Of a stretch of DNA of 32,947 bases, positions 3,522 through 29,364 are shown in pieces. The stretch is taken from contig NW_003314489.1 in NCBI RefSeq assembly GCF_000143415.4, forward strand, positions 1 through 32,947. The letters are read 5' to 3'. This DNA is from Selaginella moellendorffii (Eukaryota; Plantae; Lycopodiophyta). Positions within the stretch are counted from its first letter, which is position 1; each line of letters starts with the position of its first letter. The position numbers were made by a program, and so were the translations under genes. The notes beneath the pieces are model-generated. The model worked only from the letters and a program-made list of their open reading frames with translations, made no database searches and was not told where the DNA came from.

Positions 3522-5444
3522 TGTAAGCGACTAAATTTTCCATTCTACTTTAGTCATTTAACCACACCTCCGACCACTTGGAGGAGTCTCAATCACAACC
3601 TCCGTAAGTCCAATTCCGGACTTGGGACTTGCTAGCCCTGAGAATGGCCTCCATGCCACTTAACATTTGCACTTGGTCCAAGTGCTCCACGTGTCCGATC
3701 ACACGACCGACACTCAAAGGTACCACCGACATAGCAGCCTGTTACGCTAAGGCCATGCCCAATCACCTTTGCCACACTGGTAGTCCAATACCACTTGCAT
3801 CACAGTCTTGGCTCTCAAAGACTAGGTAACCCATCCGTGAGTGGTCATCTCAGATCCACTCTTTAGCATCCTTAGGATGCCCACCGACAAGGGGAATAGC
3901 CTTCCCCAATATCCCTCTGTCAGTCCCCACTAAGTCCCTTTTTGCCCCTGGCCGTGTTTGCCGACACTGCCACTGGATTGAGGCCCACAGGCTCGACCAC
4001 TAAGTCCCACGGTCCTCTGGGACTTCCTCACCACACGATTGTGTCCTTGGTCACTACCCCAGAGGACTGCTCCTCTTCCTTTCCACAGTTTGGGCCTTTG
4101 GGACAACATTTCGAAACACCGTGGCCTTACGCGAGCCACCTGGGTACTCTCCCCGCCTTTCGCCTTTAGGTGCTCTAGCCATGGGCTTAGAGCGAGGTTC
4201 CGTTGAGCCACGACAGGTATCCAAGTAGGTAGTGCCACCCACACTTGGACTGGGAGCATCGGCCAGTCGATCTCCCGGGGGAACTAGAGCCGGCTCTTGA
4301 ACACTTCACCAAGCTACCCCGCTTGTCGGTCCGTGTTCACTCTAGTCTTGGACTTCCCAGTGGGCAGCTCATCACCCAACACTGGGTCCGGCCTTCCTGG
4401 GCCAAACTGGCCTTTCCTGGCCAAACTGGCTCCACTGCAGTCCTCCCCTTTACTATACTTTTGGAGCTCACCAAACCCCCCAGGGTCTGGGAGACGAACG
4501 CTTTGGGCTTTCACCTTCTCAGACTCGAACTCGGACTCGGACTCGGACTCGGACTCGGACTCGGACTCGGACTCGGACTCGGACTCGGACTCGGACTCGG
4601 ACTCGGGCTCGGGCTCGGTCTCGGTCTCGGTCTCGGTCCCGGTTCCATCTCGGACTCCATCTTGGACTCCATCTCGGGTCCATCTCGGACTCCATCTCGG
4701 GTCCATCTCGGGTCCATCTCGGACTCCATCTCGGACTCCATATCGGACTCCACTTCGGGTCTCGGTCTCGGTCTCGGTCTCGGTCCCGGTTCCATCTCGG
4801 ACTCCATCTTGGACTCCATCTCGGGTCCATCTCGGACTCCATCTCGGGTCCATCTCGGACTCCATCTCGGGTCCATCTCGGGTCCATCTCGGACTCCATC
4901 TCGGACTCCATATCGGACTCCACTTCGGGTCCATCTCGGACTCCATATCGGACTCCACTTTGGGTCCATCTCGGACTCCATATCGGACTCCATATCGGAC
5001 TCCACTTCGGGTCCATCTCGGACTCCATATCGGACTCCACTTCGGGTCCATCTCGGACTCCATATCGGACTCCATATCAGACTCCACTTCGGGTCCATCT
5101 CGGACTCCATATCGAACTCCATCTCGGACTCCACTTCGGACTCCATATCGGACTCCACTTCGGGTCCATCTCGGACTCCAACTCAGGTCCGCCTCGGACT
5201 CTATCTCAGACACTTCCACGTGTCATGTGTTGGTCCTTTTTGGGTCCCTTTTTGGAGCCTTGCTTATTGGTTGCCTTGTGCTTGCTCCTCGAGCTCTTTG
5301 TTGGGAGTTCCACTCCCGCTCTCGACCTTCCAAGTCGGAGCTTTTAGTCCAAACGTGTTATGCTCGTTTGGCTTTCGCTTCGGCCACTACCACGTGGCAC
5401 CCTTTCCGGCTCCACTTTGGGGCCTAGGGATTTTGTGTCTCACA
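3522..5444 (-). repeat. 3' LTR of outer element (1923 bp)
   Basis: TGTAAGCGAC...GTCTCACA; direct repeat of 17021-18863; abuts the PPT. Confidence 0.95.
4521..5180. repeat. (GGACTC)n microsatellite plus 12-bp-unit minisatellite in LTR
   Basis: 12 perfect GGACTC units at 4533-4604, then GGACTCCATCTC/GGGTCCATCTC/GGACTCCATATC/GGACTCCACTTC variants. Confidence 0.95.
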
Positions 5445-5460
5445 ACTCCACCACCCATAG
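5445..5460 (-). other. Polypurine tract of outer element
   Basis: Minus strand CTATGGGTGGTGGAGT directly before the 3' LTR; identical to the inner element's PPT. Confidence 0.9.
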
Positions 5461-5548
5461 ACGAAGTTCGATGTCCTCATCGAACGGTAAACCATCTTAT
5501 AAAGTAACACCCGCATGTGTTACCATTTCCATCCTTGGCACCTAGCCA

Positions 5549-5680
5549 ATATTTGTCAATGGTTTGACATTGAAGGCTCACCATGCCTTCTCCATATTCG
5601 TCAATGGTTTGACATTGAAAGCTCACCATGCCTTTTGCATATTCCTCAATGGTTTGACACCAAAGGCTCACCATGCCTTG
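5549..5680. repeat. Three tandem 45-bp repeats
   Basis: Unit ATATTYGTCAATGGTTTGACATTGAAGGCTCACCATGCCTT starting at 5549, 5594 and 5639. Confidence 0.9.
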
Positions 5681-6577
5681 CCTATCCTCCAAGGAGGGTA
5701 GTCTCTCCAACTTAGAGACTGATTGGACCACATGTAGTGGTTCTCTCCTTTTATTGGTTTAGTTCTCGCTAAACCCCTTAGAAACTCTTCTCTAAGTCAA
5801 TCCCACTACTCCTTCTCGAGTAGACTCAATTTCCATCTATTGAACGTTTGCACCTTGGAACTTTTACTCTTTTGACTTTTGGAAGTCAATTTCCTAGGTG
5901 TCTCTAACACCTTGCATTGCACAGATTGTGCAACTCCACTTCCCCATCCTAGGGAGTTCATTACTTGAGGGCACCATCATCCTCTCTTCTATTTTGTGCC
6001 ACCTTGGGCACTAAGTTCCATTTATCATACTTCGTGCTAGGGCTGTCCATGGCCCTATCGTTTGGCTACTTTACCGCTCCCTCCCTTGGAGCATCCACTT
6101 TCGCCAAATCGGAGCAATTCGGAATCCATCCTTGGAAACACACTTCCTTTCCCGCAATTTGTTAGCGTCCAACACATTAGTGTTCCTCGCCTAACTTTGT
6201 CACTTGGATTCCTTCCAAGGGATTCCACGGCCCTATCTTGGCCACTCATCTTTTGCTCCTATCCGTTGATTATTGCGCCAAGCAACATCGAATCTCTACC
6301 TCCCTCGTTGAGGTATTCTTTTGATTCCATAGCAAAGGTTCTGCTTTGCCAAGACTAGGGTGTTCACCCCTGGTAAGTCTCTTTAGCATCTTCTACTGTG
6401 GGCTCTATCCATGGCCCAACTTTGTGACCCTCCCATGGGTCTCTCCTAGAGACTACTTTGAACTCACAATACCATTGTATGGTCGTAGTTCATTTCCTTA
6501 GGTGTCCTTCCCACTTGGTCACCTTGACCAAGCCACACCATTATCAATAGGAACTAGGTCTTCCAGACCCTTCTAAG

Positions 6578-7021
6578 TTGTTGACTATGACCCCGGGGGC
6601 ATCCCCCACACTTGGCGGTGCGCCCAAGCCAGCCCTTCCGGCCAAGGATCCATAGCAACTGAGACTGGGTGTCCCCATCTCATTCACCACGTCCTTGGTG
6701 CCCTTTGCACCAAAGTGTTCAAGTTAGATATGCCGAGCTTTCACTCTAAGCAATCTAACCGTGCATCACGACTCCGGGGCATCCCCCGCTTGGCGGTGTG
6801 CCCAAGCCAATCTCCTCATTGAGAGTCCATGACCACCGAAATATGAGTGTCCTCATATTCCAAACCATCACCACGCCCTAGTGATTTGGGACTCGAACCC
6901 AAGCACTAGAGGGTCGGGACTCAAACCCAACCTCCGTATATGCATCTACGGACGGCATCACCCAGGATGCCTGGCGTGACTCTCCCCACGCCGGTGCACC
7001 AACTTATACTCAAAGCGCGCT
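6578..7021 (-). ncRNA. Putative cis-acting structured RNA module (partly duplicated) of outer element
   Basis: Reverse complement is collinear with 13133-13426 and shows compensatory stem changes. Confidence 0.6.
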
Positions 7022-7109
7022 AGAGATCACAGCTTAGGAACCTAGTTCCTCCCCACTGCCAAGTCCTCTCACTTGACAAGCCTGTGATCATGCATGGACT
7101 CCTCCATGC

Positions 7110-8257
7110 TGTAAGGAACCAACTCGCCGAGGTGTCGTAGGCTAAAGGAACCCCGAAAGCATGACCAAAATGACAAAGAGTTCATCGGATGGGACCAAGT
7201 CGAAGATCGAGTCCAAGACCGACTCTAGGACCGAGTTCGAGATCGAGTCCGGAATCGAGTCCGAGACCGACTCGGGGACCGAGTTCGAGTCTGAGTTCGA
7301 GACCGAGTTTGAGACGGAGTCCGAGATCCGAAATCGGGTCCGAGACCGAGTCCGAGGTCGAGTCCGAGGTCGGGTCCGAGATCGGGTCCGAGATCGAGTC
7401 CGAGATCGAGTCCGAACCCGAATCCGAAGTCGGATCCGAAATCGGGTCCGAGATCGAGCCAGAGACTAAGTCCAAATACTAATACGGGTCAAGGGGTGAA
7501 AGCCCAAAGCGTGCGTCTCCCAGGGGGGGGGGGGCTGCAGGGGGTTCCAAAAGTATAGTAGGGATAGTGAGGTCCAGGAACCAGTTTAGAAGGGACTCTC
7601 CAGTGGGGCTCCCAAACTGACTTGAGGTTGGGACTGGGACCGAGGGGCCTTGGGTGGGAGTGAGCATGGACTTGGTTGGTGCCGGAGGGGCCATCCAAGG
7701 AAGTGCTCAAGAGCAGCTCCCACTCCCGAAAGGGAAACCGATTGCGGTGCTTCCGGCTCAAGTGGAGTGGTGCCCCACTTGAGTACCATGCGGCTCATTG
7801 GTCCTCGCCCTTCCTAGGGGCTTGGGCCTTCCTTCGGGATGGAAGTGGGGGGCGAGAGGTACCCATACCGGGCCGCTAGGCCATGGTGTTTCGCCCCGGC
7901 GTCTCGAAGCAAGTGTTGCACTCAAGACTTGGGATTTAGAGGGTCCCATGATCAAGTCTTGTGGTACCAAAGGATGTTAGGAACCTGGAAGCTTGGTGTG
8001 CTTGGCTGCTTGTGCTTGCGGGGAGTGTAGCCGAACCTTAAGTCCAGTCCAACCCGGGGAGGGGGATTGGGAGTGATTTGGGAATCCGTGGATGGTGGCT
8101 AACACTCCGTTGCTCGTGCAGTGAGTAGCTGAGACCAAGTAGGAGCTGGTACCATAGGCGAGAACCTTGGCAAGGGAACTTAGCAAAAGCCAAGGCGGTG
8201 TTGGACGGATAGGCGAGGTAAGCTAGCAAATTGGAAAGGAAAAATTTGTGGCTTACA
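7110..8257 (+). repeat. 5' LTR of inner element (1148 bp)
   Basis: Direct repeat of 13488-14634 with about 9 substitutions and 1 indel; degenerate GAGTCC/GAGATC/GGGTCC hexamer array at ~7200-7470. Confidence 0.97.
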
Positions 8258-8260
8258 ATT

Positions 8261-8272
8261 TGGTATTGGAGC
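8261..8272 (+). other. Primer binding site (initiator tRNA-Met type)
   Basis: TGGTATTGGAGC, 3 nt after the LTR; canonical plant iMet PBS is TGGTATCAGAGC. Confidence 0.85.
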
Positions 8273-8316
8273 CTTTATCTCAGTTCTAGCGAAGGATAGA
8301 GGCGGATTGCTGGGAG

Positions 8317-11300
8317 ATGGCAAGGGCAGGGCGTAAGCGAACCCAGGCGGAGACGGAACCTCCGCCGGAGCTGGAGCCTCCGGTCGAACAAGAGGCTATG
8401 GATGAGGAATCCTTGCATGAGGAGAACTCTAGTGAGGAAACTTCCAAACAGGAGTCCGGTGGCGAGGTTCGGTCGTCCAAGGCTGGATTGGACGTGCTAG
8501 AAGGACAGTTGGCACAGACCAATGCCCTGCTGGAAACTCTCGTACGCAAGCTAAAGCGTGACGAGAGGCGGAAGAAAAAGAAAAAGACTGCGGATGCTGG
8601 CAGCGCAGAAGGTGCGGATCTTTCGGCCGGGACTGAGGCAAAACCAGACAAGGTCGAACAAACTGAAGTGGAATCAGTCCCTCAGGCAGTTCCCAAGTAC
8701 AAACCAAAGCCCCCACCGGTCTTCAAGGGAGTGAACAACTATAAGGTGGTGGAGGATTGGTTTTACGATATGGAGGACTACTTCCGAGCGTTGTGGTTAC
8801 CGAGCTCGGAGAAGGTCCCATGTGCAAAACCATACTTGGCAGATAATGCCAAGTCTTGGTGGAGAACGACGGAGGCCAACGAAGGACCAGTGGCCACTTG
8901 GGACATGATGAAGGCGAGGATCCGCGCAACATACGTTCCTCCGAATGCCACTCTGCATCTGAGAGATGAGCTGAGTAGGCTGAAGCAGACTGGAACCATC
9001 CAGGAATATATGAATGGGTTCATGGCAAAAAGGATACTTGTCACGGACATGGGGGATATGGATGCGTTCCATGCCTTCATATCAGGTTTGCAAACCTGGG
9101 CTCGCGGTGAGGTGATGCGGTGGAACCCGACCAACTACAAGGAAGCGTTGGATGCGGCCATCAAGGTGCATTTCAACGATAACCTGCGAAAGGGGAACAC
9201 GACGGGGTCGGGATCCACATTTAGCAAAGGGGCCAAACCAAGGGGAACGTATAGCAAGGGGAAATTCAAAAAGAGTTTCTCTAAGAATGAGTCCTCGGGG
9301 TTCCGGAAAGGCAAATCCGGTGGCCAGCGAGCGAGTACGTGGGGGAGTCAAGCGAAAAAAGACAAACCCACGGATAAGAAGGTCAAGTCGTATAGCAGCG
9401 TGGGAAACAACGTATGCTACAACTGCGGCGAAGCGGGACACTTCTCGAGGGAATGTCCCTACCCGAAGAAGGCCAGAGCCAATATGGCCATCAAGTCGGG
9501 TGAAGTCCAAACTGAGGTATGTGATCCAGTCCCTAACTCAAAGTTACTCATTACACGAGCAACTTTGGTAGAGAGTCGTTCGCGACATCTACTAGCCCTC
9601 CGAGGGAAGCTCGGAGGTAGCTTTGTTAAGATCCTTATTGACACGGGTGCTTCGGATAATTTTGTGGCTGCAGACATAGTTCGGCAAGCCGGACTAACGG
9701 TGCAGCGGCTAGGCGAACCAAGGACTATAGAGTTTGTTCAAGGTAGCCAAAGCACCGATGAGGTACTTCGACAAGCGAGAGTCGAAGTGGGGACATGGAA
9801 AGTGGACATGGATTTCACCATCTTGGACATGGCGGGATTTGACGTGATCTTCGGAATGGATTGGTTTAATCGGTTCGTGGTAGCCCTGCATGGACAAGGT
9901 AGGAACCTGGTGGTATTGGCGAATGCCCAAGGAAGAAGATCTAGGGTGGAGGCCCAGGATCTAAAGGTAGGGCAAAGCAAGGCCAAAGAGTCATGCTTAA
10001 ACCTGGTGTCCACGAGAGGACAACTCACTAAAGGAACTAAGGCAGCCTTTTTGTGCTTACTCTCGGTGAAGAGTGACAAAAAGACAAGAACGGAAGAAGT
10101 ACCTTTAGTGATCCAGCAGGTGCTGGACCAATTCCAGGATACGATGCCGAAGGAGCTACCGGCGGGGTTGCCCCCCGCACGACCGATAGAACATAAGATT
10201 GAGCTGGTCGAGGGTGCTGAGGCAGTGGTTCGTCCACCCTATCGATTGAATGAAAAAGAACTCAAGGAGCTCAAGAGCCAACTAGAGGAGTTGGTGGACA
10301 AAGGGTATGTTAGGTTGAGCAAGTCGCCGTATGGGGCGCCGGTGCTATTTGTGAAAAAGAAAGATGGATCTATGCGCATGTGCATAGACTACCGGTTGCT
10401 CAACAAGTATACCAAGAAGAACAAGTACCCTTTGCCAAGGATCGAGGACCTGTTCGATAGGTTGGGAAAGGCAAAATACTTCTCGAGGATTGACCTAAGG
10501 TCAGGATACTACCAGATCAGGGTAGCTGAGGAAGATGTTGAGAAGACAACCTGTCGAACGAGGTATGGGAGCTTTGAGTTTTTGGTGATGCCCTTTGGGC
10601 TGTGCAATGCACCGGCAACGTTTTCGGCGTTGATGAACCACATCTTTGTACCCTATTTGGATCGCTTCGTGGTCGTCTATATTGACGACATCCTGATCTA
10701 TAGCGAGACGCTAGAGGAGCATGCCAAACACTTGGCGAAGGTGTTTGAGAAACTAAAGGAACACAAACTGTATGCTAAAGAGAGCAAATGTGACTTTGCT
10801 CAACAAGAGGTAAAGTTTCTCGGGCATGTGGTGGGCCAGGACGGGCTCAAGGTGGACCCGGAGAAGGTCCAAGCGATCCAGGAATGGGAACGACCATCGA
10901 ATGTACATGAGTTGAGGGCGTTCCTGGGGCTATGCAACTACTATCGAAAGTTTATCAGACACTATTCGAGAGTAGCCCTGCCCTTAACGGACTAAACAGG
11001 AAAAGGGAAGATGGTATGGACAGCGGAATGCGAGGCGGCATTCGTCCACCTCAAAGGGAAGTTGAGGAAGGCTCCGGTGTTGGCATTACCAGACTTTGGT
11101 AAGGACTTTGAGGTAGACACGGATGCTTCGGACTTTGCGTTGGGCGCAGTTTTGAAGCAAGACAACCATCCAGTAGCGTTCTTCTCGAAGAAGCTGGACA
11201 AGGCTCAACGGAAGTGGCCTGCCCACGAGAAGGAATTGTTTGCGGTGGTCAAGGCGCTCAAGGAGTGGCGACACTACCTTGGGAGACACTTCAAGGTTTA

Positions 11301-13085
11301 CACGGACAATGTGGCAACGAAACACTTCTTGTCACAGCCTGACCTAAGGGGAAAACAAGGTCGGTGGGCCAATGCTTTGGCCGAGTTTGATTGCGAGATC
11401 CTGTACAAGCCTGGGAAGAGCAACATCGTGGCAGATGCGCTAAGTCGAAAAGCGAGCTTGAAGTTGGCGATATCTAGCGCGACAGCAACCTTTTGGGACG
11501 ATGTGCGGACCGCATACGAGAGTGATGGTCTAGCACAAGAAGTGTTGCTGAGGAATCTGGAGGCGCGGGAAGCTCACCAGAGAGGTGAGCTGCCAACGGA
11601 AGAGAAAACGGGCTATGCGGAACGCAACGGACTCATATATTACAAGCAAACGAGGGTGTATGTTCCAGAAGGGGAACTAAGGAAGGTAGCCTTGGAAGAG
11701 TGTCATGACGGACCTCTCGCGGGACACGGCGGAGTGCCCAAGACGATGGGCTTACTCAAAAGGAAGTATCACTGGCCAGATATGGCTAAGGACGTCCAAG
11801 ACTATGTAAAGACATGTCCAACATGTCAGCAGGTCAAAACCGTGACGAAGGCTAGTGGGGGCTTGTTGCAAAGCATCCCCATTCCAGATCGTCCATGGAA
11901 ATGTCTCACGATGGACTTCATCACGGGACTACCCCCAAGCGAGGGGTTCGATGCGATATTCGTGGTGGTGGACCGATTTTCAAAGATGGCACATTTCATA
12001 CCCACCACAACGGATGTGGATGCGGAAAGTGTGGCAAAGCTGTTCTTCGAACAAGTGGTTCGAGTGCGGGGAAGGCCGGAAGAGATTATCTCAGATCGAG
12101 ATAAGATCTTCACCAGTAGGTTCTGGAGGACACTCCTAGAACAGTATCGCACCAAGTTGAAATTCAGCACGGCCTATCACCCACAGGTAATGGGTATTGA
12201 GTCAAGATTGATGGCACTAACACTTCTTGACAGACGGACAAACGGAAAGGGTGAATAGGCAGCTGGAGGATTATTTGCGATGCTATGTCTCGGGAGACCA
12301 GACCGACTGGGTAAGTCATTTGGGACTTGCGGAAATGTGTTATAACAACTCACCACATTCGAGCATCGGGGTGAGTCCATGGGAAGTCATCAATGGGCGA
12401 GCTATTGAAGGTCCTGTGGAACTCGGCGTGGCCGAGTATCATGGAGAGTTACCCGCAGTGGAGGCATTCACGGCGGAAAGACTCAACATTTGGAATCTAG
12501 TGAGGGATTCCTTGGAACGGGCTCAACAAAGGCAAACTAAGTACGCGAACCAAAAGCGTCGAGATGTGGAGTTCCAAGCTGGGGAGAAGGTGTGGCTGAA
12601 CACCAAGAACCTCAGGCTACCAAGTGGGATCAGCCGGAAGTTGACCCAAAGGTAAGAATGCATGTGTTCCTGTAAATGAATTGATCTTGAGTTCCTTAAG
12701 CAGGTTCGCGGGGCCTTACGAGATTGAGGCTCGAATCGGTAAAGTGGCTTACTGTCTCCGACTTCCTCGAGAGATGGGGAAGATGCATCCCGTGTTCCAC
12801 GTGAACTTACTCAAGCCGTATTTTGAGGATCCGCTTCGCAAGGACCAAGTAAGACCTTTACCTGAGGTTATCCAAGGGGAGGAGGAATACGAAGTCGAGG
12901 CCATCCTCAATGCGCGCAAGAGCAAGCGACATGGACGCGAGGTGAGAGAGTTCCATGTGAAGTGGAAAGGATTTCCACACTGCGAAGCAACATGGGAACC
13001 GGAGGAGAACCTAGCGAACGCACGAGATCTAGTGGAGGAATTTCTGCATGGCAGAACTCTATGTACTTATGCAAAGTTCAATTAA
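8317..13085 (+). CDS. gag-pol: Gag-Pol polyprotein (capsid, zinc knuckle, protease, RT, RNase H, integrase, chromodomain); one in-frame stop and two intron-like inserts
   Basis: [14 protein letters not shown]; LIDTGAS; YIDDIL; DTDASD; H..GH..CPTC; MDF/SDRD/QTER; FAGPY; YEVEAIL...VKWKGF...TWEPEENL. ORFs 8317-10995 and 11011-12258 share a frame and are separated by TAA at 10993-10995. Confidence 0.95.
12187..12229 (+). other. Intron-like insertion in the integrase catalytic core
   Basis: CAG|GTAATG...CACTAAC...TTCTTG|ACAG. Removing 43 nt restores YHPQTDGQTER and D-X35-E spacing. The nearest AG (12233) is 4 nt off-frame. Confidence 0.7.
12652..12703 (+). other. GT-AG intron (52 nt) in integrase C-terminal region
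   Basis: AG|GTAAGA...TTCCTTAAGCAG|G. Removal restores KLTQR-FAGPY in frame; the unspliced reading stops at 12653-12655. Confidence 0.85.
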
Positions 13086-13132
13086 AAGTATCAATTTGAG
13101 AAGTTGAGCAATGGCATATGTTGGGACCCGAA

Positions 13133-13426
13133 GGCGCGCCGAAGGTAAGCTAATTAGCATGGGTTAGCTAGGTCGACCAGGCGTAGGGAGCTACGCCCGA
13201 CTCCCTGCAGGGATGTCGAATCCGTAGACGTATTCTACGGAGGTTGGGTTCGAGTCCCAACCCCCTAGTAAAGCAAGGCTGGGTTCAAGTCCCGACCCTA
13301 TACTAGGGCGTGGTGAGGTGAGGAGTATAGGGACACCTATATTCCGTTGTCAAGGGCTCTTGGCCGGGGAGGCTAACTTAGGCACACCGCTAAGTGGGGG
13401 GATGCCCCCGGAGACATGGTCAACAA
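13133..13426 (+). ncRNA. Putative cis-acting structured RNA module in 3' UTR of inner element
   Basis: Consecutive hairpins at 13180-13197, 13198-13218, 13221-13241, 13242-13262, 13281-13293, 13322-13345 and 13377-13394; conserved in the outer element. Confidence 0.6.
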
Positions 13427-13471
13427 GTCGTAGGATAAAACGAGACGTTCGATGTGGGCATTGAACTTCTT

Positions 13472-13487
13472 CTATGGGTGGTGGAGT
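13472..13487 (+). other. Polypurine tract of inner element
   Basis: CTATGGGTGGTGGAGT immediately 5' of the 3' LTR. Confidence 0.9.
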
Positions 13488-14634
13488 TGTAAGGAACCAA
13501 CTCGCCGAGGTGTCGTAGGCTAAAGGAACCCCGAAAGCATGACCAAAATGACAAAGAGTTCATCGGATGGGACCAAGTCGAAGATCGAGTCCAAGACCGA
13601 CTCTAGGACCGAGTTCGAGATCGAGTCCGGAATCGAGTCCGAGACCGACTCGGGGACCGAGTTCGAGTCCGAGTTCGAGACCGAGTTTGAGACGGAGTCC
13701 GAGATCCGAAATCGGGTCCGAGACCGAGTCCGAGGTCGAGTCCGAGGTCGGGTCCGAGATCGGGTCCGAGATCGAGTCCGAGATCAAGTCCGAACCCGAA
13801 TCCGAAGTCGGATCCGAAATCGGGTCCGAGATCGAGCCAGAGACTAAGTCCAAATACTAATACGGGTCAAGGGGTGAAAGCCCAAAGCGTGCGTCTCCCA
13901 AGGGGGGGGGGCTGCAGGGGGTTCCAAAAGTATAGTAGGGATAGTGAGGTCCAGGAACCAGTTTAGAAGGGACTCTCCAGTGGGGCTCCCAAACTGACTT
14001 GAGGTTGGGACTGGGACCGAGGGGCCTTGGGTGGGAGTGAGCATGGACTTGGTTGGTGCCGGAGGGGCCATCCAAGGAAGTGCTCAAGAGCAGCTCCCAC
14101 TCCCGAAAGGGAAACCGATTGCGGTGCTCCCGGCTCAAGTGGAGTGGTGCCCCACTTGAGTACCATGCGGCTCATTGGTCCTCGCCCTTCTTAGGGGCTT
14201 GGGCCTTCCTTCGGGATGGAAGTGGGGGGCGAGAGGTACCCATACCGGGCCGCTAGGCCACGGTGTTTTGCCCCGGCGTCTCGAAGCAAGTGTTGCACTC
14301 AAGACTTGGGATTTAGAGGGTCCCATGACCAAGTCTTGTGGTACCAAAGGATGTTAGGAACCTGGAAGCTTGGTGTGCTTGGCTGCTTGTGCTTGCGGGG
14401 AGTGTAGCCGAACCTTAAGTCCAGTCCAACCCGGGGAGGGGGATTGGGAGTGATTTGGGAATCCGTGGATGGTGGCTAACACTCCGTTGCTCGTGCAGTG
14501 AGTAGCTGAGACCAAGTAGGAGCTGGTACCATAGGCGAGAACCTTGGCAAGGGAACTTAGCAAAAGCCAAGGCGGTGTTGGACGGATAGGCGAGGTAAGT
14601 TAGCAAATTGGAAAGGAAAAATTTGTGGCTTACA
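13488..14634 (+). repeat. 3' LTR of inner element (1147 bp)
   Basis: Direct repeat of 7110-8257, followed by TSD CATGC. Confidence 0.97.
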
Positions 14635-17005
14635 CATGCTTGGCCCCATGGCCCACCCTTTTTGAAGTTATCACCTTCAACTAGGGTATTTGTTCCCCTG
14701 ACTTGCCAATCTCACTTTGGCAAGTCCTCCGACCACTGTAACATGGTTTCTGCACAAGCGTGAAAGCCCTTGATCATCGACTTTCGTTCAAAGCCCTCTC
14801 TTTGAACACTCGGGAACTACTTCCCTAACCTTGATAGCCTTGTCTCATGGAAAGCTTCAAGACCACATTTCTGCTGCGCCACTCTGATTTCGCGCGTTCC
14901 TTGAACCATTTACGCTTGGCCTTTCTAGGTACTAAGCTACCTAGAATCCTCTTTGGGAACCTTGAAGGAACTCTGTTCCTTAGCTTGCTAAAGCCTCCCT
15001 TTTTGCAAGCTTTCCAATTACCATATAGTCTAACATGGACAATTCCATATTTTAGACTCTCCATGGCATCACGATTGCTAACGGCAACACCCTCAAGCCC
15101 CCACTTGATTCTCCACTCCCAGCTGGCATAACCAACCTTGGTTATGCCCTTCGATTCCTATGGTTCGGTTCTATCCCCTTACTTCTTGCTTTTGGCTTCA
15201 CACATTTTCTTCGGTCATTCTCCTCCAGACCAGGAGGATAGCTTTGCACTTTCTATCATGCCTTAGCAAGTATTCTTAGGGATGAACCTACCCGATAGCC
15301 TAGGGAGTGTTTCCTCAATCCAGGTATGCTCACCCTATAATCCCACACACCGGGATTACGTTGTTGCTTACGGGCCTTTGCATGCCCATCGCTAGCCTTG
15401 CCAAAATACCATTTTTGGCTTTGTCCAATTCGAGTAGACAGTCTTCTCCTGTCTCTGCCACCTTGGACATTTGGATAGCACCTTCTATCCATCATTCGCT
15501 AGGGACTTAGTCCCTTGGGCTTTATCCATTGCCCTCGCGACATCAAACACCACCTTCTGGTGTTCTAGAGTGTTCGGGTGTCCCAATGATGGCTTTCTTG
15601 ACAATGAGTATTTCCTTTTATGACATTGACTTACTATATCGCAACACAAGCAACTTATCCCCCGTAAGGGTGTATCCGACTTCCCTATGCTATTAAGAAG
15701 TCTTGGGTAGCTACCTTTTACCCGTTCAACCAGTTATTTTGCACCTCTTGCTTAGTTGCTTCATAGTTGTCAAGTCTTACAACTCATTGTTTGGTGCTTT
15801 CACACCTCCATAATTATCTGGGTCACCACACTCCAACTGCATGCTCTGCAGCTTAGGCTATGCCATTCCCATTTCCATTGGGATTCCTTTGGCAAGGGGT
15901 TCTCATGAACCCACCAACATAGCCTCAAGGTATCACACCTTGACACATTTGGTGTCTCCACATCATCAGCTCCACGAGCCTACCTCTATGACACTTCCCC
16001 TTCGTGTTTATGTCTTTGCCAAGACCAACACCGCTCTTTCTCATGCCAACCATCCGTTAGCACTGCACCATAGAGGTCACACACAACTTTGTGTCAAAGT
16101 TGTTTTCTTTTTTTTTTTTTTTTTTTGGGAACACCTTTCCCACGACTTTAGCATGGCACATTTTGCCATCGATGAGATACCCTCTGTTCTCATCCTTGGA
16201 TCCTATGATCCCCCCCCATCCTTCGTGGGGTACGACACACCTCAGTCCAAATGCTTCCATCAGTCCTTTTAGGACCATCCCTTGACTCTACTTGAGTCAT
16301 CCAGCAGTTTTGGATTTGGTTAATCCACAGACCCGTAAGGTCCCACTTGTGAGGCACTAGCTCATTGGAATACACTTCCTGCATTCCTGTTCTACTCAGA
16401 AGGACTATTTTCACAAGTGTTACTCTGACACTTGTTTTTGTTATCTAAGGCAACCTCTGCCCCTTAGGACTACTTGTCCATGTGATGAGAATACCAACTC
16501 ATCTCTAAGTACACCCCCCAACTCCTTGGGTTGTTCTAGCATTTATTAAAAGTAGCCCCGGCTACCATTTCAAGGACTTGAGTCCTCTTCCGTATTTGAC
16601 CTCCCACAGTCATTACCTCTGGTCTCACATTCATGAGCACCAACCTCAACTATATGAGGATAATCTTGTGACTCCTTTATTGTTTTGGAGTCTACATCTT
16701 TCCCGTGATCCCAACTATAGTTGTTTATCACAATTACGTTAGCCCGTTTGCTGCGTCAAACGCTCATTTGGATCACATCCTCAGCTCTCTGAGGAGACCT
16801 TATACTGTTCCCAAGATCCCAAAGTCGTTCCATTATTGGCCCTTTTCTATCCACCACATTGTGCCCAAGTCACGCATGAACTTGAGTGGAGAGCCATGTC
16901 CCCTCGGCATGCTACTCCTTAAGGATAAGCCCACTCCTAGGACCTTCCGAAGCCAATATCAATGGTGATATACTTGAGCACCAATAAAAGTCGGACTAAG
17001 GAACA

Positions 17006-17017
17006 GCTCCGATACCA
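17006..17017 (-). other. Primer binding site (tRNA-iMet type) of outer element
   Basis: Minus strand TGGTATCGGAGC, 3 nt (ATT) after the LTR; same spacer as the inner element. Confidence 0.9.
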
Positions 17018-17020
17018 AAT

Positions 17021-18863
17021 TGTAGGCGACTAATTTTTCCATTCTACTTTAGTCATTTAACCACACCTCCGACCACTTAGAGGAGTCTCAATCACAACCT
17101 CCATAAGTCCAATTCCGGACTTGGGACTTGCTAGCCCTGAGAATGGCCTCCATGCCACTCAACATTTGCACTTGGTCCAAGTGCTCCACATGTCCGACCA
17201 CACGACCGACACTCAAAGGTACCACCGACATAGCAGCCTGTTACACTAAGGCCATGCCCAATCACCTTTGCCACACTGGTAGTCCAATACCACTTGCATC
17301 ACAGTCTTGGCTCTCCAAGACTAGGTAACCCATCCGTGAGTGGTCATCTCAGATCCACTCTTTAGCATCCTTAGGATGCCCACCGACAAGGGGAATAGCC
17401 TTCCCCAATATCCCTCTGTCAGTCCCCACTAAGTCCCTTTTTGCCCCTGGCCGTGTTTGCCGACACTGCCACTGGATTGAGGCCCACAGGCTCGACCACT
17501 AAGTCCCACGGTCCTCTAGGACTTCCTCACCACACGACTGTGTCCTTGGTCACTACCCCAGAGGACTGCTCCTCTTCCTTTCCACAGTCTGGGCCTTTGG
17601 GACAACATTTCGAAACACCGTGGCCTTACGCGAGCCACTTGGGTACTCTCCCCGCCTTTCGCCTTTAGGTGCTCTAGCCATGGGCTTAGAGCGAGGTTCC
17701 GTTGAGCCACAACAGGTATCCAAGTAGGTAGTGCCACCCACACTTGGACTGGGAGCATCGGCCAGTCGATCTCCCGGGGGAACTAGAGCCGGCTCTTGAA
17801 CACTTCACCAAGCTACCCCGCTTGTCGGTCCGTGTTCACTCTAGTCTTGGACTTCCCAGTGGGCAGCTCATCACCCAACACTGGGTCCGGCCTTCCTGGG
17901 CCAAACTGGCCTTTCCTGGCCAAACTGGCTCCACTGCAGTCCTCCCCCTTACTATACTTTTGGAGCTCACCAAACCCCCCAGGGTCTGGGAGACGAACGC
18001 TTTGGGCTTTCACCCTCTCAAACTCGGACTCGGACTCGGACTCGGACTCGGACTCGGACTCGGACTCGGACTCGGACTCGGACTCGGACTCGGACTCGGA
18101 CTCGGACTCGGACTCGGACTCGGACTCGGACTCGGACTCGGACTCGGACTCGGACTCGGACTCGGACTCGGACTCGGACTCGGGCTTGGGCTCGGACTCG
18201 GACTCGGGCTCGGGCTCGGGCTCGGTCTCGGTCTCGGTCCCGGTTCCATCTCGGACTCCATCTTGGACTCCATCTCGGGTCCATCTCGGACTCCATCTCG
18301 GGTCCATCTCGGGTCCATCTCGGACTCCATCTCGGACTCCATATCTGACTCCACTTCGGGTCCATCTCGGACTCCATATCGGACTCCACTTCGGGTCCAT
18401 CTCGGACTCCATATCGGACTCCACTTCGGGTCCATCTCGGACTCCATATCGGACTCCACTTCGGGTCCATCTCGGACTCCATATCGGACTCCATATCAGA
18501 CTCCACTTCGGGTCCATCTCGGACTCCATATCGAACTCCATCTCGGACTCCACTTCGGACTCCATATCGGACTCCACTTTGGGTCCATCTCGGACTCCAA
18601 CTCAGGTCCGCCTCGGACTCTATCTCAGACACTTCCACGTGTCATGTGTTGGTCCTTTTTGGGTCCCTTTTTGGAGCCTTGCTTATTGGTTGCCTTGTGC
18701 TTGCTCCTCGAGCTCTTTGTTGGGAGTTCCACTCCCGCTCTCAACCTTCCAAGTCGGAGCTTTTAGTCCAAACGTGTTATGCTCGTTTGGCTTTCGCTTC
18801 GGCCACTACCACGTGGCACCCTTTCCGGCTCCACTTTGGGGCCTAGGGATTTTGTGTTTCACA
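17021..18863 (-). repeat. 5' LTR of outer element (1843 bp)
   Basis: TGTAGGCGAC...GTTTCACA followed by TSD ATTGC. Confidence 0.95.
18020..18598. repeat. (GGACTC)n microsatellite plus 12-bp-unit minisatellite in LTR
   Basis: 26 perfect GGACTC units at 18026-18181, then 12-bp variants. Confidence 0.95.
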
Positions 18864-19694: not shown

Positions 19695-19940
19695 TTTGGT
19701 TTGCTTAATAGTAATGTTATTCTTACTTATTAATCCAATTGATCAAATAAAAATTTATAATTATCAACATGTTTATAATTTATAAACACACAAGATGAAT
19801 TTTATTGCATATCAACCATTAGATGGTAAAATAAAAACAAATATACTAGAAAGTGCTTAAGAAGATTTATAAATTATAAATAATGAATAACAACTATTAG
19901 ATGGTAGAATATCCATACAGATTTGCTTAAGCAAACCAAA
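19695..19940. mobile_element. AT-rich MITE-like repeat, copy 1
   Basis: 14-bp inverted ends TTTGGTTTGCTTAA / TTAAGCAAACCAAA. The core (TTATTGCATATCAACCATTAGATG...AATATACTAGAAAG) recurs at ~25830-26030. No clear TSD. Confidence 0.55.
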
Positions 19941-23382: not shown

Positions 23383-24330
23383 CTATGTGGTCCGCAACAC
23401 AAGCAGGGAAATCCCCACAGAACTCCCTTCCAGTCCCTGCCGGAGAATCTGTGCGTGGAAGAGCTTCCCGAGCTTCAAATCTCCCAGGTTCCTGCAAACT
23501 GGCAACAACGCAAGAAAGGTTTGAGAGTTTAGAGCAACTTCCAGGGCTGCATAGCATTCCAACGCAAGCTCGTCCTCGCCAATGTAAACACATCCAAACA
23601 GGAAAGAGTTCCACAAAACTATGTCGCGATCTAAGATTTTATCAAATACCCTGCGAGCGTCCATGATCAAGCTTCCACACTTGGCATACATATCAACCAG
23701 ACTGCCGGATCTCTCTCCAGGCCAAGCTGCGAGATCCACGAGTGGATTTTCATTGCTTTCTCGAGAGATTCTACGTCTAAATCCCATTTTCTTCTCTGTG
23801 ATTACGCTACAAGCCTTGATAGCGGCGAGACAAGCTAAACGATCGGGTTTAAATCGTTGTTCTTGCATGGAAGAGAAGAGAAGGAAAGCTTCGTCTCCAT
23901 CTCGGCTCTCGTGAGCATAGCCTGTGATGATCGATGTCCAGGAAACGATGTCGTGCTGCTCCATCGAATCAAACACCCTGCGAGCATCTTCTAGACTTTC
24001 ACAGTTGCCATACAAGTCCACCATCGCGTTTGCCAAGTGTATGTCTCCTCGCCTCCAACTTGAAGCCGCGAGAGCTTGATGCGTGAGAGTGAATCGCCAA
24101 AGCTCGTTCCAAGCTCTTAATCTTCACAGCCAACGACGCATCAATCTCCTCTCGCGCAGCCAGACTAGAGCAAGTTTTGATAGCTGCGAGAAAACTCGAG
24201 CAATCTGGATTGATCATAGCAGCTTCCATCTGGGAGAAGAGCTCGAGAGCCAAATCTTCCTGCCGGTTTTGAGCGTATCCCAGAACCAATACCGTCCAGG
24301 AGACAACGTCGTGGTTCTCAATCCCATCGC
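23383..24330 (-). pseudogene. PLS-class pentatricopeptide repeat pseudogene
   Basis: DVVSW..LGYAQN, VDLYGNCESLEDARRVFDSM..DIVSWTSIITGY, SLVDMYAKCGS. Frameshift near 24040; lacks a start and the C-terminus. Confidence 0.85.
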
Positions 24331-24456
24331 CGAGAGTTTCTCATGCTTCCACACTTGGCATTCCAGGAAATGTTCACTTAAACATGATACCTTTAAAATA
24401 AAAGATGCTTAAACTAAGATTCTGCCTTTACAAACAAGCCCTAGTGCTCATTCGAG

Positions 24457-25407
24457 ATGGTTAAGCGCGAGCGCGAGCGCGAGCATAGTTTAGACAATTA
24501 TATGCACAAAAAACTTAGGCAAGGGATGGATTACCACACGGTCCTGGATGAGAAACTCTGTGAGGAACACCCAGCGCTGGTAGAGAAATATAAACTAGAG
24601 AAATCGATTGGGGGTGGAGGGCAATCGACGGTGTACAAGGCATTCCGAAGGAGTGATGGGAAGGTTTTTGCGATCAAGACGGTCCATGGGCCCGATGGGC
24701 TGTTTGAAGCTCGGCTGATGGCTATGCTAGAGGTGTCACTCAAGGGTCTCGATGAGCAGGGGCTCGTCCACTTCGAGCAGCTCATACGAGAAGAGCCCAA
24801 TCAGTACGGGGAGGTGTACCACCTTGTTCTTGAGCTGTGCAATTGCAGCCTTCACGACCGGATCAAGTACAAGGGGCAGCTTGATGAGGAAGAATCTGCA
24901 AAGATCGTCATAGCTCTCGCCAAGACGCTAAAGAGGGTTCATGACAATGAGATCATCCACTGCGACCTGAAGCCCGCGAATGTTTTGCTGAAGTACCCGC
25001 GGCCTGGGATGTTCTATGTCCCAAAGGTGTCCGACTTTGGGATGGCTTGCTGGATGGAGGATCCGTGGAACGAGTGTGGGGCTGGGACGTGGGATTATAT
25101 GTCCCCCGAAGCGATGCTCGATGGGTGCTATATCACCGCCAGCGATGTGTGGGGCTTAGGGATGCTGCTTTACACTTGTCTCACGGCAATTTGTCCGTTC
25201 CCAAATATGGATGTGGAGGTGGTATTTAAGAATGCACGCAAGCGAGATCGAAGTTTAAGGAACCTCCATCACAATTCTATGGATTGGGATAGCATTCCAT
25301 CCCTTTCTGCAAGGCAGCTTATCCAAGGCATGACGGAATTGGATCCCGGAAGGAGGTTTACTTTGGAAAAGGTCCTCGAACATGAGTGGATAAAGAAATA
25401 TTTATAA
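24457..25407 (+). CDS. Ser/Thr protein kinase, CAMK/CDPK-like catalytic domain only, intronless
   Basis: GGGGQSTV, AIK, HCDLKPAN, DFG, GTWDYMSPE, DVWGLG, conserved subdomain XI Arg; 316 aa from ATG to stop. Confidence 0.9.
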   Translation: MVKREREREHSLDNYMHKKLRQGMDYHTVLDEKLCEEHPALVEKYKLEKSIGGGGQSTVYKAFRRSDGKVFAIKTVHGPDGLFEARLMAMLEVSLKGLDEQGLVHFEQLIREEPNQYGEVYHLVLELCNCSLHDRIKYKGQLDEEESAKIVIALAKTLKRVHDNEIIHCDLKPANVLLKYPRPGMFYVPKVSDFGMACWMEDPWNECGAGTWDYMSPEAMLDGCYITASDVWGLGMLLYTCLTAICPFPNMDVEVVFKNARKRDRSLRNLHHNSMDWDSIPSLSARQLIQGMTELDPGRRFTLEKVLEHEWIKKYL

Positions 25408-25814: not shown

Positions 25815-26081
25815 TTGGTTTTTTTAATAATCAAATAAAGTTTATAATTATAAGCATGTTTGTAATTTATAAATATAAGATTAATCTTATTGCATATCAA
25901 CCATTAGATGATAGAATAAAAAATAATATACTAGAAAGAGTTTAAGAAAGTTTAAAAATTATAGACATGTTTATAAATTATAAATACAAAATTAATCTAT
26001 ATGAGTAACAACCGTTAGATGATAGAATATCCTAGAATATCCAAGCATTTTCTAGGTATATCCATTACCATCTAAAACCAA
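25815..26081. mobile_element. AT-rich MITE-like repeat, copy 2 (degenerate)
   Basis: Collinear with 19695-19940; ends TTGGTTTT / AAAACCAA. Confidence 0.45.
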
Positions 26082-27758: not shown

Positions 27759-29360
27759 TTAGCTCTCATAAACATGAGCCATCAACAAGTACGCTGACGA
27801 TTTCACCCTCACATCCATTCCAACCAACGCATCAAATGCTTCACTTCCAACTCTCGTGTTCTTCCACTTCCTACAAGCGCTCAAGATCGTCATCCAGGTC
27901 ACGACACCCGCTTGGAAAGGCATCGATCTCACAATCTCCAGCGCCTCCTCCAGATGGTTTGCTCGCCCCCTATCAATCATGCAGTGGTAGTGCTCAATCC
28001 CATACTTCTCTCTTTCGGTCCAAACAATCGTTTCCCTCGCTCCACAAGCCCGGCATGGCTACATGCGGCTAGCACACACAGCAGGGTCACACCTCCCGGC
28101 CTCATGCCAGTGTCCACCATCGCCTGGAACGTCACAAACACGAACTTCACGTCATCTTGGCGGCCATAGCCGGACACTAGAGCCGTCCATGCAACCACGT
28201 CCCGCGCGGCAACCATGGAACCATCAAAGACACGCTGAGCGTCGGCCATGGTAGCACACTTCCCATAGAAGTCGATCAAACCGGTGACCACGATGGTATC
28301 ACCCTCCAGTGCATGCCGGCAAATCTCGCCATGGAGACGTCGCCCAGCTTTGCTCGAGGCGATGGATCCGCACGCCTTGAGTGCTGCCACGAGCGTCCAC
28401 TGGTCGGGCTCCACTCCCTCGTCCACCATCGCGAAGAACACCACCAGGGAGCTCTCGCCATTGCCATTCTCGGCGTAGCCGGAGACGAGCCCCGTCCATG
28501 ACACTACATCGTGGCTCTCCATTTGATCGAAGGCCCTGTGCGAATCCTCCATGCTTCCAGCTCGCGAGTACATATCGATCAGGCTGCTGGCCACTAAAAG
28601 ATCTCGATCACACCCGGCTTCCGTAGCTCGAGCATGAACAGCCATGCCTTTCTCCAGGCTTTCGATCTTCACAGCTCTTCCATCAAAGTCCCTGGCTTCT
28701 TCTCGCGATGCCAAGTGATTGCAAGCCTTCACAGCAGCAAGGTAGCTCAAGCTATTTGCCACAACGCGTGGTTCTTCCCTGTGCGTGGCCGCGAGTAGCT
28801 CGAGCGCCATAGCCTCGCCATCATTCTCGGCATAGCCCAGCATGATCGTGTTGTACGAGACCACGTCCCGTGTAAGCATTGCATCAAAAACTCGCCGGGA
28901 ATCCACCATAGTTCCACACTTCGCATACATGTCGATCAAAGTGTTCCCCACGAAAACGTCCCTGGAATCGCAGCCACTGTTCACAGCTGCGAGGCGATGG
29001 ATCACCATTCCAGTGGTGAGAGTGCGAAACTTTATCACACTTCCGCCTTGCTCCTCCTCGGCAAGGCTGCTGCAAGCCTTGATCACTGCCACGAAAGTCC
29101 AAGCGTTTGCATGGTATCCCTGGTGAACCATGCACAAGAAGAGCTCCACCGCCACCTTGTTCTCGCCATTGTCACCATAGCCGAGTATCAACGCTGTCCA
29201 CGAGACAATGTCGTGGCTGGCAAAGCGCTTGAAGATCCTCCTTGCATCCTCCATACTCCCACACTTCATATACAAATCCACAAGTCCGTAAGCCATGAAA
29301 GCATCCGACTCAAATCCACTCTTGCGAGCTTCGTGATGAACAGCCATGACGGTCTCAAGA
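27759..29360 (-). pseudogene. PLS/E-class PPR gene, 5'-truncated, frameshifted near 28000
   Basis: 456-aa ORF of P/L/S repeats to LAACSHAGLVERG. The E-type tail (LEEALEIVRSMPF...TWMTILSACRKW...SAYLLMAHVY) is in another frame. No DYW domain. Confidence 0.85.
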
Positions 29361-29364
29361 GCTC

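Follow-up and report, generated by a model that had tools for sequence, protein, structure and literature searches.

A structured RNA module of about 250 nt lies in the 3' non-coding part of a coding LTR retrotransposon of Selaginella moellendorffii, and occurs again, once complete and once in part, in a non-coding LTR element at the same locus. The conserved RNA structure is very probably real, and we read it, at a little below even odds (roughly 45%), as a cis signal recruiting full-length RNA to Gag for packaging. The window analyzed comprises positions 1 to 32,947 of contig NW_003314489.1, 32,947 nt in all.

Two nested LTR elements occupy the window, an inner one (7110-14634, plus strand) within an outer one (18863-3522, minus strand). 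The inner element sits antisense in the outer one, with the junction at 7109/7110, about 110 nt upstream of the outer module. It is 7525 bp long with the target site duplication (TSD) CATGC, and its LTRs (7110-8257, 1148 bp, and 13488-14634, 1147 bp) are 99.1% identical. Its primer binding site (PBS), read from the sequence at 8261-8272 (+), is of the tRNA-Met type, judged by the description of SM1-Galahad considered below. The gag-pol frame (8317-13085, +) runs through Gag, CCHC, protease, RT, RNase H, integrase, SH3 and chromodomain, and is disrupted at three places, by a stop near 10994 and by changes of frame near 12240 and near 12650. The Gag-PR-RT-RH-IN order, C-terminal chromodomain, LTRs, PBS, polypurine tract (PPT) and 5-bp TSD identify a Ty3/gypsy chromovirus. 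Its anatomy fits SM1-Galahad, by description and not by sequence; as to a Galadriel placement, a 35-row RNase H-integrase tree put the inner-element protein inside no supported clade. It does not match SM-Tcn1, which is described with 440-bp LTRs and no PBS (PMC2864245).

The outer element (3522-18863, minus strand) measures about 7.8 kb without its insert and has its own TSD (GCAAT), PBS, PPT and LTRs (18863-17021, 1843 bp, and 5444-3522, 1923 bp). In its interior of about 4 kb, 124 tblastn queries revealed nothing coding (best E 0.34). The sequence-only reading had called this interior decayed; a non-coding element fits better, as there is no coding remnant and the element is itself a high-copy family. 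Being large, without coding capacity, equipped with PBS and PPT and present in many copies, it is LARD-like. Both families are large, with 13740 contigs from one sequencing run matching the inner stretch and 14914 the outer stretch. Their PBSs are both Met-type and their LTR ends are alike (30 nt, 80%); beyond the ends and simple repeats the LTRs have little in common.

The LTRs of both families carry degenerate tandem arrays of a 6/12-nt GAGTCC type, variable in length (7190-7490, 13566-13870, 4490-5280 and 17990-18700), followed by a similar short motif; arrays and motif hint at a common descent of the two families. Near its PPT the outer interior holds three 45-nt tandem repeats (5549-5683). 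Elsewhere in that interior a 16-nt stretch in sense orientation (14888-14873, -) matches the 5' end of plant tRNA-iMet. It may be a captured primer fragment; Rfam gave no tRNA match for it, and the same 16 letters appear as a wheat small RNA with no tRNA label (PMC5411081). Flanking host frames were seen in window regions 3522-3821, 468-2049, 23383-25407 and 27977-29362, among them PPR-type frames at 23383-24340 and 27977-29362 (-) and a kinase-like frame at 24445-25407 (+); the look-alikes of the one PPR frame checked (27977-29362) are streptophyte protein clusters. An AT-rich repeat of about 95-110 nt stands at 19756-19911 and again at 25841-26045, 6085 nt apart, and is possibly a small DNA transposon or a Helitron piece.

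Comparison of the window with itself by blastn matched 13180-13413 with 6992-6772 (72%, E 2e-22) and 13305-13426 with 6695-6578 (75%, E 2e-14). The other internal match of note joins the PPT regions (13446-13493 with 5486-5439, 90%), and the internal sequence common to the two elements comes down to the PBS, a hairpin with the PPT, and the module. Self-blastn, folding and alignment together place the inner copy at 13171-13424 (+). Outer copy A (6765-7000, -) is complete, with both T-arm hairpins. Outer copy B (6580-6760, -) is a partial tandem copy that keeps the GACA hairpin, the junction and stems at the T1 and T2 positions; its stem at the T2 position carries two double changes and both T-loops are replaced by other loops. 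This loss points to a core in the 3' half of the module, from which the T-arms may be separable. The sequence-only reading had taken 13133-13426 to be collinear with 7021-6771. The shared stretch is real, with its start near 13171 and not at 13133. It had also named conservation no higher than in the flanks as fatal to its case; aligned identity of inner and outer element is 0.59-0.70 inside the module, 0.46 upstream (13086-13170) and 0.30 downstream. Every stem and loop it quoted is present in the sequence, with the qualification that the TGGG-GACA-CCCA hairpin belongs to the third, tandem copy (6760-6580), outside 7021-6771.

Sequencing depth on the outer element is at least 0.72 million in 21/21 bins over 6592-7095 and about 0.12 million or less in 3/8 bins of the 3' flank, a minor support, since the 5' flank matches the module in depth and such depth does not measure copy number. 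Downstream of the inner module a hairpin at 13447-13466 leads into the PPT (13447-13487, +), an arrangement common to the outer element and weakly to distant relatives; the outer counterpart, a hairpin with an AGGA loop and the PPT (5445-5485, -), lies about 1.1 kb downstream of copy B. This hairpin just before the PPT, usually with an AGGA loop and with differing stem letters, was seen at 13447-13466 (+), at 5485-5466 (-) and in loci L007, L039 and L054, and the metagenome family has two of them, one behind the stop codon and one ahead of the PPT. Because the distance from module to PPT differs between the elements (about 50 nt in the inner, about 1.1 kb in the outer), the module is not part of the priming site. 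At the 3' end of the outer LTRs (3667-3563 and about 17165-17065, -) there is a weak look-alike of the third hairpin and T1 (26/34 nt), which at a covariance-model E of 0.53 (3667-3563) may be chance.

The predicted fold is a chain of about nine hairpins, in 5'-to-3' order a palindrome, three hairpins, T1, a stem around T2, CGTGGTGA, the GACA hairpin and a four-way junction. The 8-nt palindrome GGTCGACC (13171-13178, +) has its outer counterpart in GGTGCACC at 7000-6993, where a double change leaves it palindromic; it is a weak, post hoc candidate for a dimer contact, and is predicted to be mostly paired in the outer monomer fold. Three abutting hairpins follow (13180-13197, 13198-13218 and 13221-13241, +), with pair probabilities of 0.97-1.00. 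T1 (13242-13262, +) has a 7-bp stem and the T-loop TTCGAGT, an exact box B, and competes with an alternative pairing in a longer fold. A second 7-bp stem (13263-13308, +) encloses the T2 hairpin (13277-13297), whose loop TTCAAGT is again an exact box B. CGTGGTGA (13309-13316, +) is the same in all three module copies and could pair with CACCG of the 8-nt loop in a candidate pseudoknot without covariation. The 10-bp hairpin with its GACA tetraloop (13322-13345, +) has 3/10 pairs changed on both sides, and the four-way junction (13346-13424, +) is built from a closing stem and three hairpins with a purine loop, a GCACACCG loop and a GATG loop. Folding z-scores are -4.2 for the inner and -5.8 for the outer copy, with 0/100 shuffles as stable in each case. 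The two box B hairpins, the palindrome kept through a double change and the four-way junction come in addition to what the sequence-only reading had described.

The loops of T1 and T2 fit the tRNA T-loop or box-B consensus, displayed at a stem apex as in a box-B recruitment element. The whole window contains three exact box-B matches, all of them loops of the module, against 0.40 expected (0/100 shuffles reach three); if a single mismatch is tolerated, the count is no more than chance predicts (8 found vs 7.95 expected). A fourth T-loop site has one mismatch in this copy, whereas about 85% of the family depth at that site fits box B. ARAGORN found no tRNA gene. Rfam, a search that the sequence-only reading had proposed, yielded no match within the module, neither a tRNA at E 10 nor any other of its families, including ribozymes, CTE, Psi and DIS; the scan of 12900-13600 returned one chance match at E 9.3, outside the module. 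A tRNA gene or the head of a tRNA-derived SINE was rejected on the ARAGORN and Rfam results and for want of a conserved box A. A tRNA cloverleaf was rejected likewise, as the acceptor-like stem is missing in the outer copy (judged by eye) and both programs were blank, and so was a TRIM of the Helenus/Cassandra type, as the motifs are internal and the elements are 7.5-7.8 kb long.

Support for the fold comes first from copies that were each folded alone. Of 62 confident inner pairs, a proportion of 0.99 reappeared in the outer copy, to within two positions, whereas a null in which the same substitutions and gaps were moved gave 0.15 ± 0.10 (0/200 as high); curated helices played no part in this comparison. 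For half-modules the recovery was 0.99, then 0.98 for the 3' half of copy A and 0.71 for the 3' half of copy B (0/300 each). Sequence variants within the families gave further evidence. Two variant tables, of 118 and 73 rows, were used through the 40 rows with the best support in each; 37 of these variants mapped on module copies, 21 of them in stems. Single stem variants kept pairing in 13/17 cases, where a transition-rich null expects a proportion of 0.44 (p 0.007), and in 11/12 cases when shares were limited to 8-95% (p 0.0009). Pairs are broken by four of the listed stem variants, at shares of 3, 4, 31 and 97%. Two pairs are swapped on both sides, with matching majority shares of 0.87/0.82 and 0.90/0.88 (not phased). 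Most of the kept changes are G-U wobbles, which favors RNA over DNA as the level of action.

Aligned-column tests were more modest. In a three-copy MAFFT alignment 8/38 pairs are changed on both sides (reached in 8/500 shuffles) and 84% of cells pair, in a test that leans toward structure because the structure was derived from the same sequences. Double changes counted column by column gave p values of 0.017, 0.053 and 0.010 with curated helices, which had been drawn with all copies and variant tables already in view, and 0.16-0.25 with blind helices; broken pairs were significantly scarce in 2/6 comparisons. Misalignment at indels probably contributes to these weak counts. The covariation proposed earlier holds in that independent folds agree and variants keep pairing, and is modest at most in the pairwise double-change counts (p 0.01-0.25). 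The loops said to be kept are so for GACA, the 8-nt loop, GATG and the T-loops, while unpaired identity overall is 0.63 vs 0.69 in stems. A single host, or close kin of it, is the source of every module copy.

We then compared the module with related loci, taking the best 80 of 525 (42-52% identity). Two covariance models, R1 and R2, found no module copy in these 80 loci and no match in any 3' UTR; the best outside matches (E 0.025 and 0.036) lie antisense at the LTR starts of locus L016, followed by one at E 0.68. Among the best 80 of 525, 51 loci have sequence past the chromodomain, and 41 of these form one family with an 800-nt 3' UTR. That UTR is hairpin-rich (z -5.5, 20 shuffles), with consensus helices, and a tree-aware covariation test on 38 rows was weak (P 0.04-0.18). 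In L007 (6920-7725) and its relatives we saw a hairpin chain in which some pairs are compensatory and one hairpin has a GACG tetraloop; the UTR of this family is a possible second, independent structured UTR. Homology of the module with this metagenome-family UTR was rejected, as nhmmer found only the PPT hairpin in both directions (E 0.02 and 0.08). In L033, L037, L039, L052 and L054, among twelve loci read, the PPT directly follows the chromodomain. With no module found in these relatives and some of them lacking a 3' UTR, the module is lineage-specific and a long structured 3' UTR optional in the group. Searches with module patterns gave 0 matches in viral and 0 in metagenome contigs; a protein scan of the viral contigs found one distant locus.

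One RNA run of 9.2 million records yielded 8 reads on 1088 bases of the inner element, and the RNA reads on the module differ from this copy at about 8 positions. The inner family is nearly silent in that sample, from a type of library that would miss small RNAs. For the outer stretch, two further runs produced no read and a single read, too few to test expression.

Of the 3' UTR cis-element that the sequence-only reading had proposed, there is good support for a conserved and structured RNA module that acts in cis; for its role, packaging stands as the likeliest single choice, by elimination only. The elimination runs as follows: a non-coding element needs a PBS, a PPT, LTR ends and a packaging signal, and once the first three are accounted for, the module is the only remainder. 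In this proposal the RNA would fold in cells as predicted. The T-arm hairpins would mimic tRNA in the manner of box B of brome mosaic virus, the purine-rich loops and the junction would be bound by Gag or its zinc knuckle, and the palindrome might help dimerization. The non-coding element would have kept, and partly doubled, the module while competing for the particles of the coding element. There is a precedent in the T-loop mimic that recruits RNA to bromovirus replication compartments. Against it, packaging in the clade does not depend on the module, which the covariance models found in none of the 80 related loci, some of them lacking a 3' UTR altogether. This coding family is a putative helper of the non-coding one, and their LTRs share little beyond ends and simple repeats. 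The fuller scenario, in which a 3' packaging signal built on tandem T-arm mimics converged with bromovirus box B and the non-coding parasite, by keeping and partly doubling it, out-competes its helper for Gag, we regard as doubtful.

A short leader had been offered as an argument for a 3' Psi. The distance is as claimed, about 44 nt from the end of the PBS (8272) to the ATG (8317), and the argument drawn from it is weak, as the 5' end is lengthened by the U5 of a 1.15-kb LTR and the signals of Ty1 lie 5'. For Ty1, packaging and dimerization signals are described within the initial few hundred bases of the RNA (PMC5454406; see also PMC3592414). Since Ty1 packages through its 5' end, the leader length adds little.

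Less probable than packaging, and on our estimate unlikely, is a host-facing RNA element that serves nuclear export, stability or translation of unspliced RNA, with the T-arms binding host tRNA-handling proteins. The same independent folds and variants serve this explanation equally, T-loops are host ligands, and a non-coding element also needs export and stability. Some retroelements have CTE or RTE elements at the 3' end, a position typical of export elements and shared by the module. Yet Rfam gave no match to any such family, and a role in translation would not explain retention in a non-coding element.

It is improbable that the module acts in reverse transcription, its T-loops and junction keeping the tRNA-Met primer in place or joining the two RNA ends, 3' to 5', during strand transfer. 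In its favor are the Met-type PBSs of the two elements and the presence of two T-loops, as well as the binding of tRNA elbows by paired T-loops elsewhere and the split PBS of Ty3. Against it, the spacing between module and PPT varies, and a comparison without a control brought out no long, specific pairing with the 5' leader.

Highly improbable is an action of the box-B motifs at the DNA level, whether they form an internal Pol III promoter or insulating TFIIIC sites, in the manner of Helenus and Cassandra. The three exact box-B matches would suit it, and Helenus is reported from Selaginella moellendorffii (PMC10886601), but the outer copy has no box A even when one mismatch is allowed, and there is no T4 terminator close by. 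Moreover the motifs are internal and not in LTRs, most of the module is not box B, and the stems around and beyond the motifs are kept through G-U wobbles. We give the least credence to neutrality, with incidental hairpins in a stretch left over from a shared ancestor or from a template switch of recent date, to which the weak pairwise double-change counts, the ease with which transitions yield G-U pairs and the frequent module swapping described among non-autonomous elements (bioRxiv 10.64898/2026.03.01.708851) would be congenial, since the fold is intact at about 28% divergence where the null loses it, the variant test allows for transition bias, and the third copy keeps its stems by double changes.

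Returning to packaging, the selection of their own RNA by plant LTR retrotransposons, and its borrowing by non-coding parasites, are poorly known; the dependence of TRIMs on autonomous partners, for instance, is described as not known (PMC10886601). Here the shared cis set is narrowed to the PBS, the PPT region, the LTR ends and one structured module of 250 nt, which can be tested on a short RNA. A structure-conserved cis module with tRNA T-arm mimicry, its function being inferred, is probably undescribed so far: in the open literature, judged by titles or the start of abstracts, we found no account of the module or of T-loop hairpins in the 3' UTR of an LTR retrotransposon, and a prior description may exist elsewhere. 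Conserved structure in LARD cores and tRNA-derived boxes in Helenus LTRs have been described in the sources cited below.

Among coding elements the closest is SM1-Galahad, a Galadriel-like chromovirus of Selaginella moellendorffii of 7.5 kb with LTRs of about 1.1 kb, a poly-G tract and a Met PBS (PMC3350952), and the inner element agrees with it in size, LTR length, poly-G tract, PBS and split chromodomain frames. In SM1-Galahad the main frame ends in the integrase core and two short frames follow with the chromodomain, and that description mentions neither a 3' UTR nor a non-coding partner (PMC3350952). Of five strings searched in its supplement none was found, and the match is by anatomy only. 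LARDs such as Sukkula resemble the outer element as large non-coding LTR elements with a structured core domain, and their cores are said to specify conserved RNA structure (PMC7215508); they differ, as far as descriptions allow comparison, in that here the core is common to a coding family and carries T-loops. Helenus and Cassandra TRIMs are LTR elements with tRNA- or 5S-derived box motifs, and Helenus LTRs carry tRNA-derived boxes in Selaginella too (PMC10886601); those elements are shorter than about 1 kb with boxes A and B inside the LTRs, whereas here the motifs are internal, no box A is conserved and the elements are 7-8 kb long.

The Psi of MLV has GACG loops and a kissing loop with a self-complementary CG. 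The GACA and GATG loops of the module recall these GACG loops, although its GACA is without the self-complementary CG. More broadly, the clustered hairpins, purine-rich loops, palindrome and possible pseudoknot resemble retroviral Psi and the 5' domain of Ty1 (PMC5454406), which differ in lying at the 5' end; no Rfam match links the module to them. The nearest functional parallel is box B of brome mosaic virus, an internal T-loop mimic with tRNA-like modification that is needed for RNA recruitment into replication compartments (PMC4083346, PMC5869524, PMC13191261). Like the module, box B of RNA3 is an internal non-coding stem-loop presenting a tRNA T-loop, the viral one carrying m5U and pseudouridine. 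The module differs in belonging to an LTR retrotransposon and in setting two T-loops among about nine hairpins, and its likeness to box B is one of analogy. If the T-loop mimic does have a role in packaging, it would link the packaging of a retroelement to a signal of a plant RNA virus.
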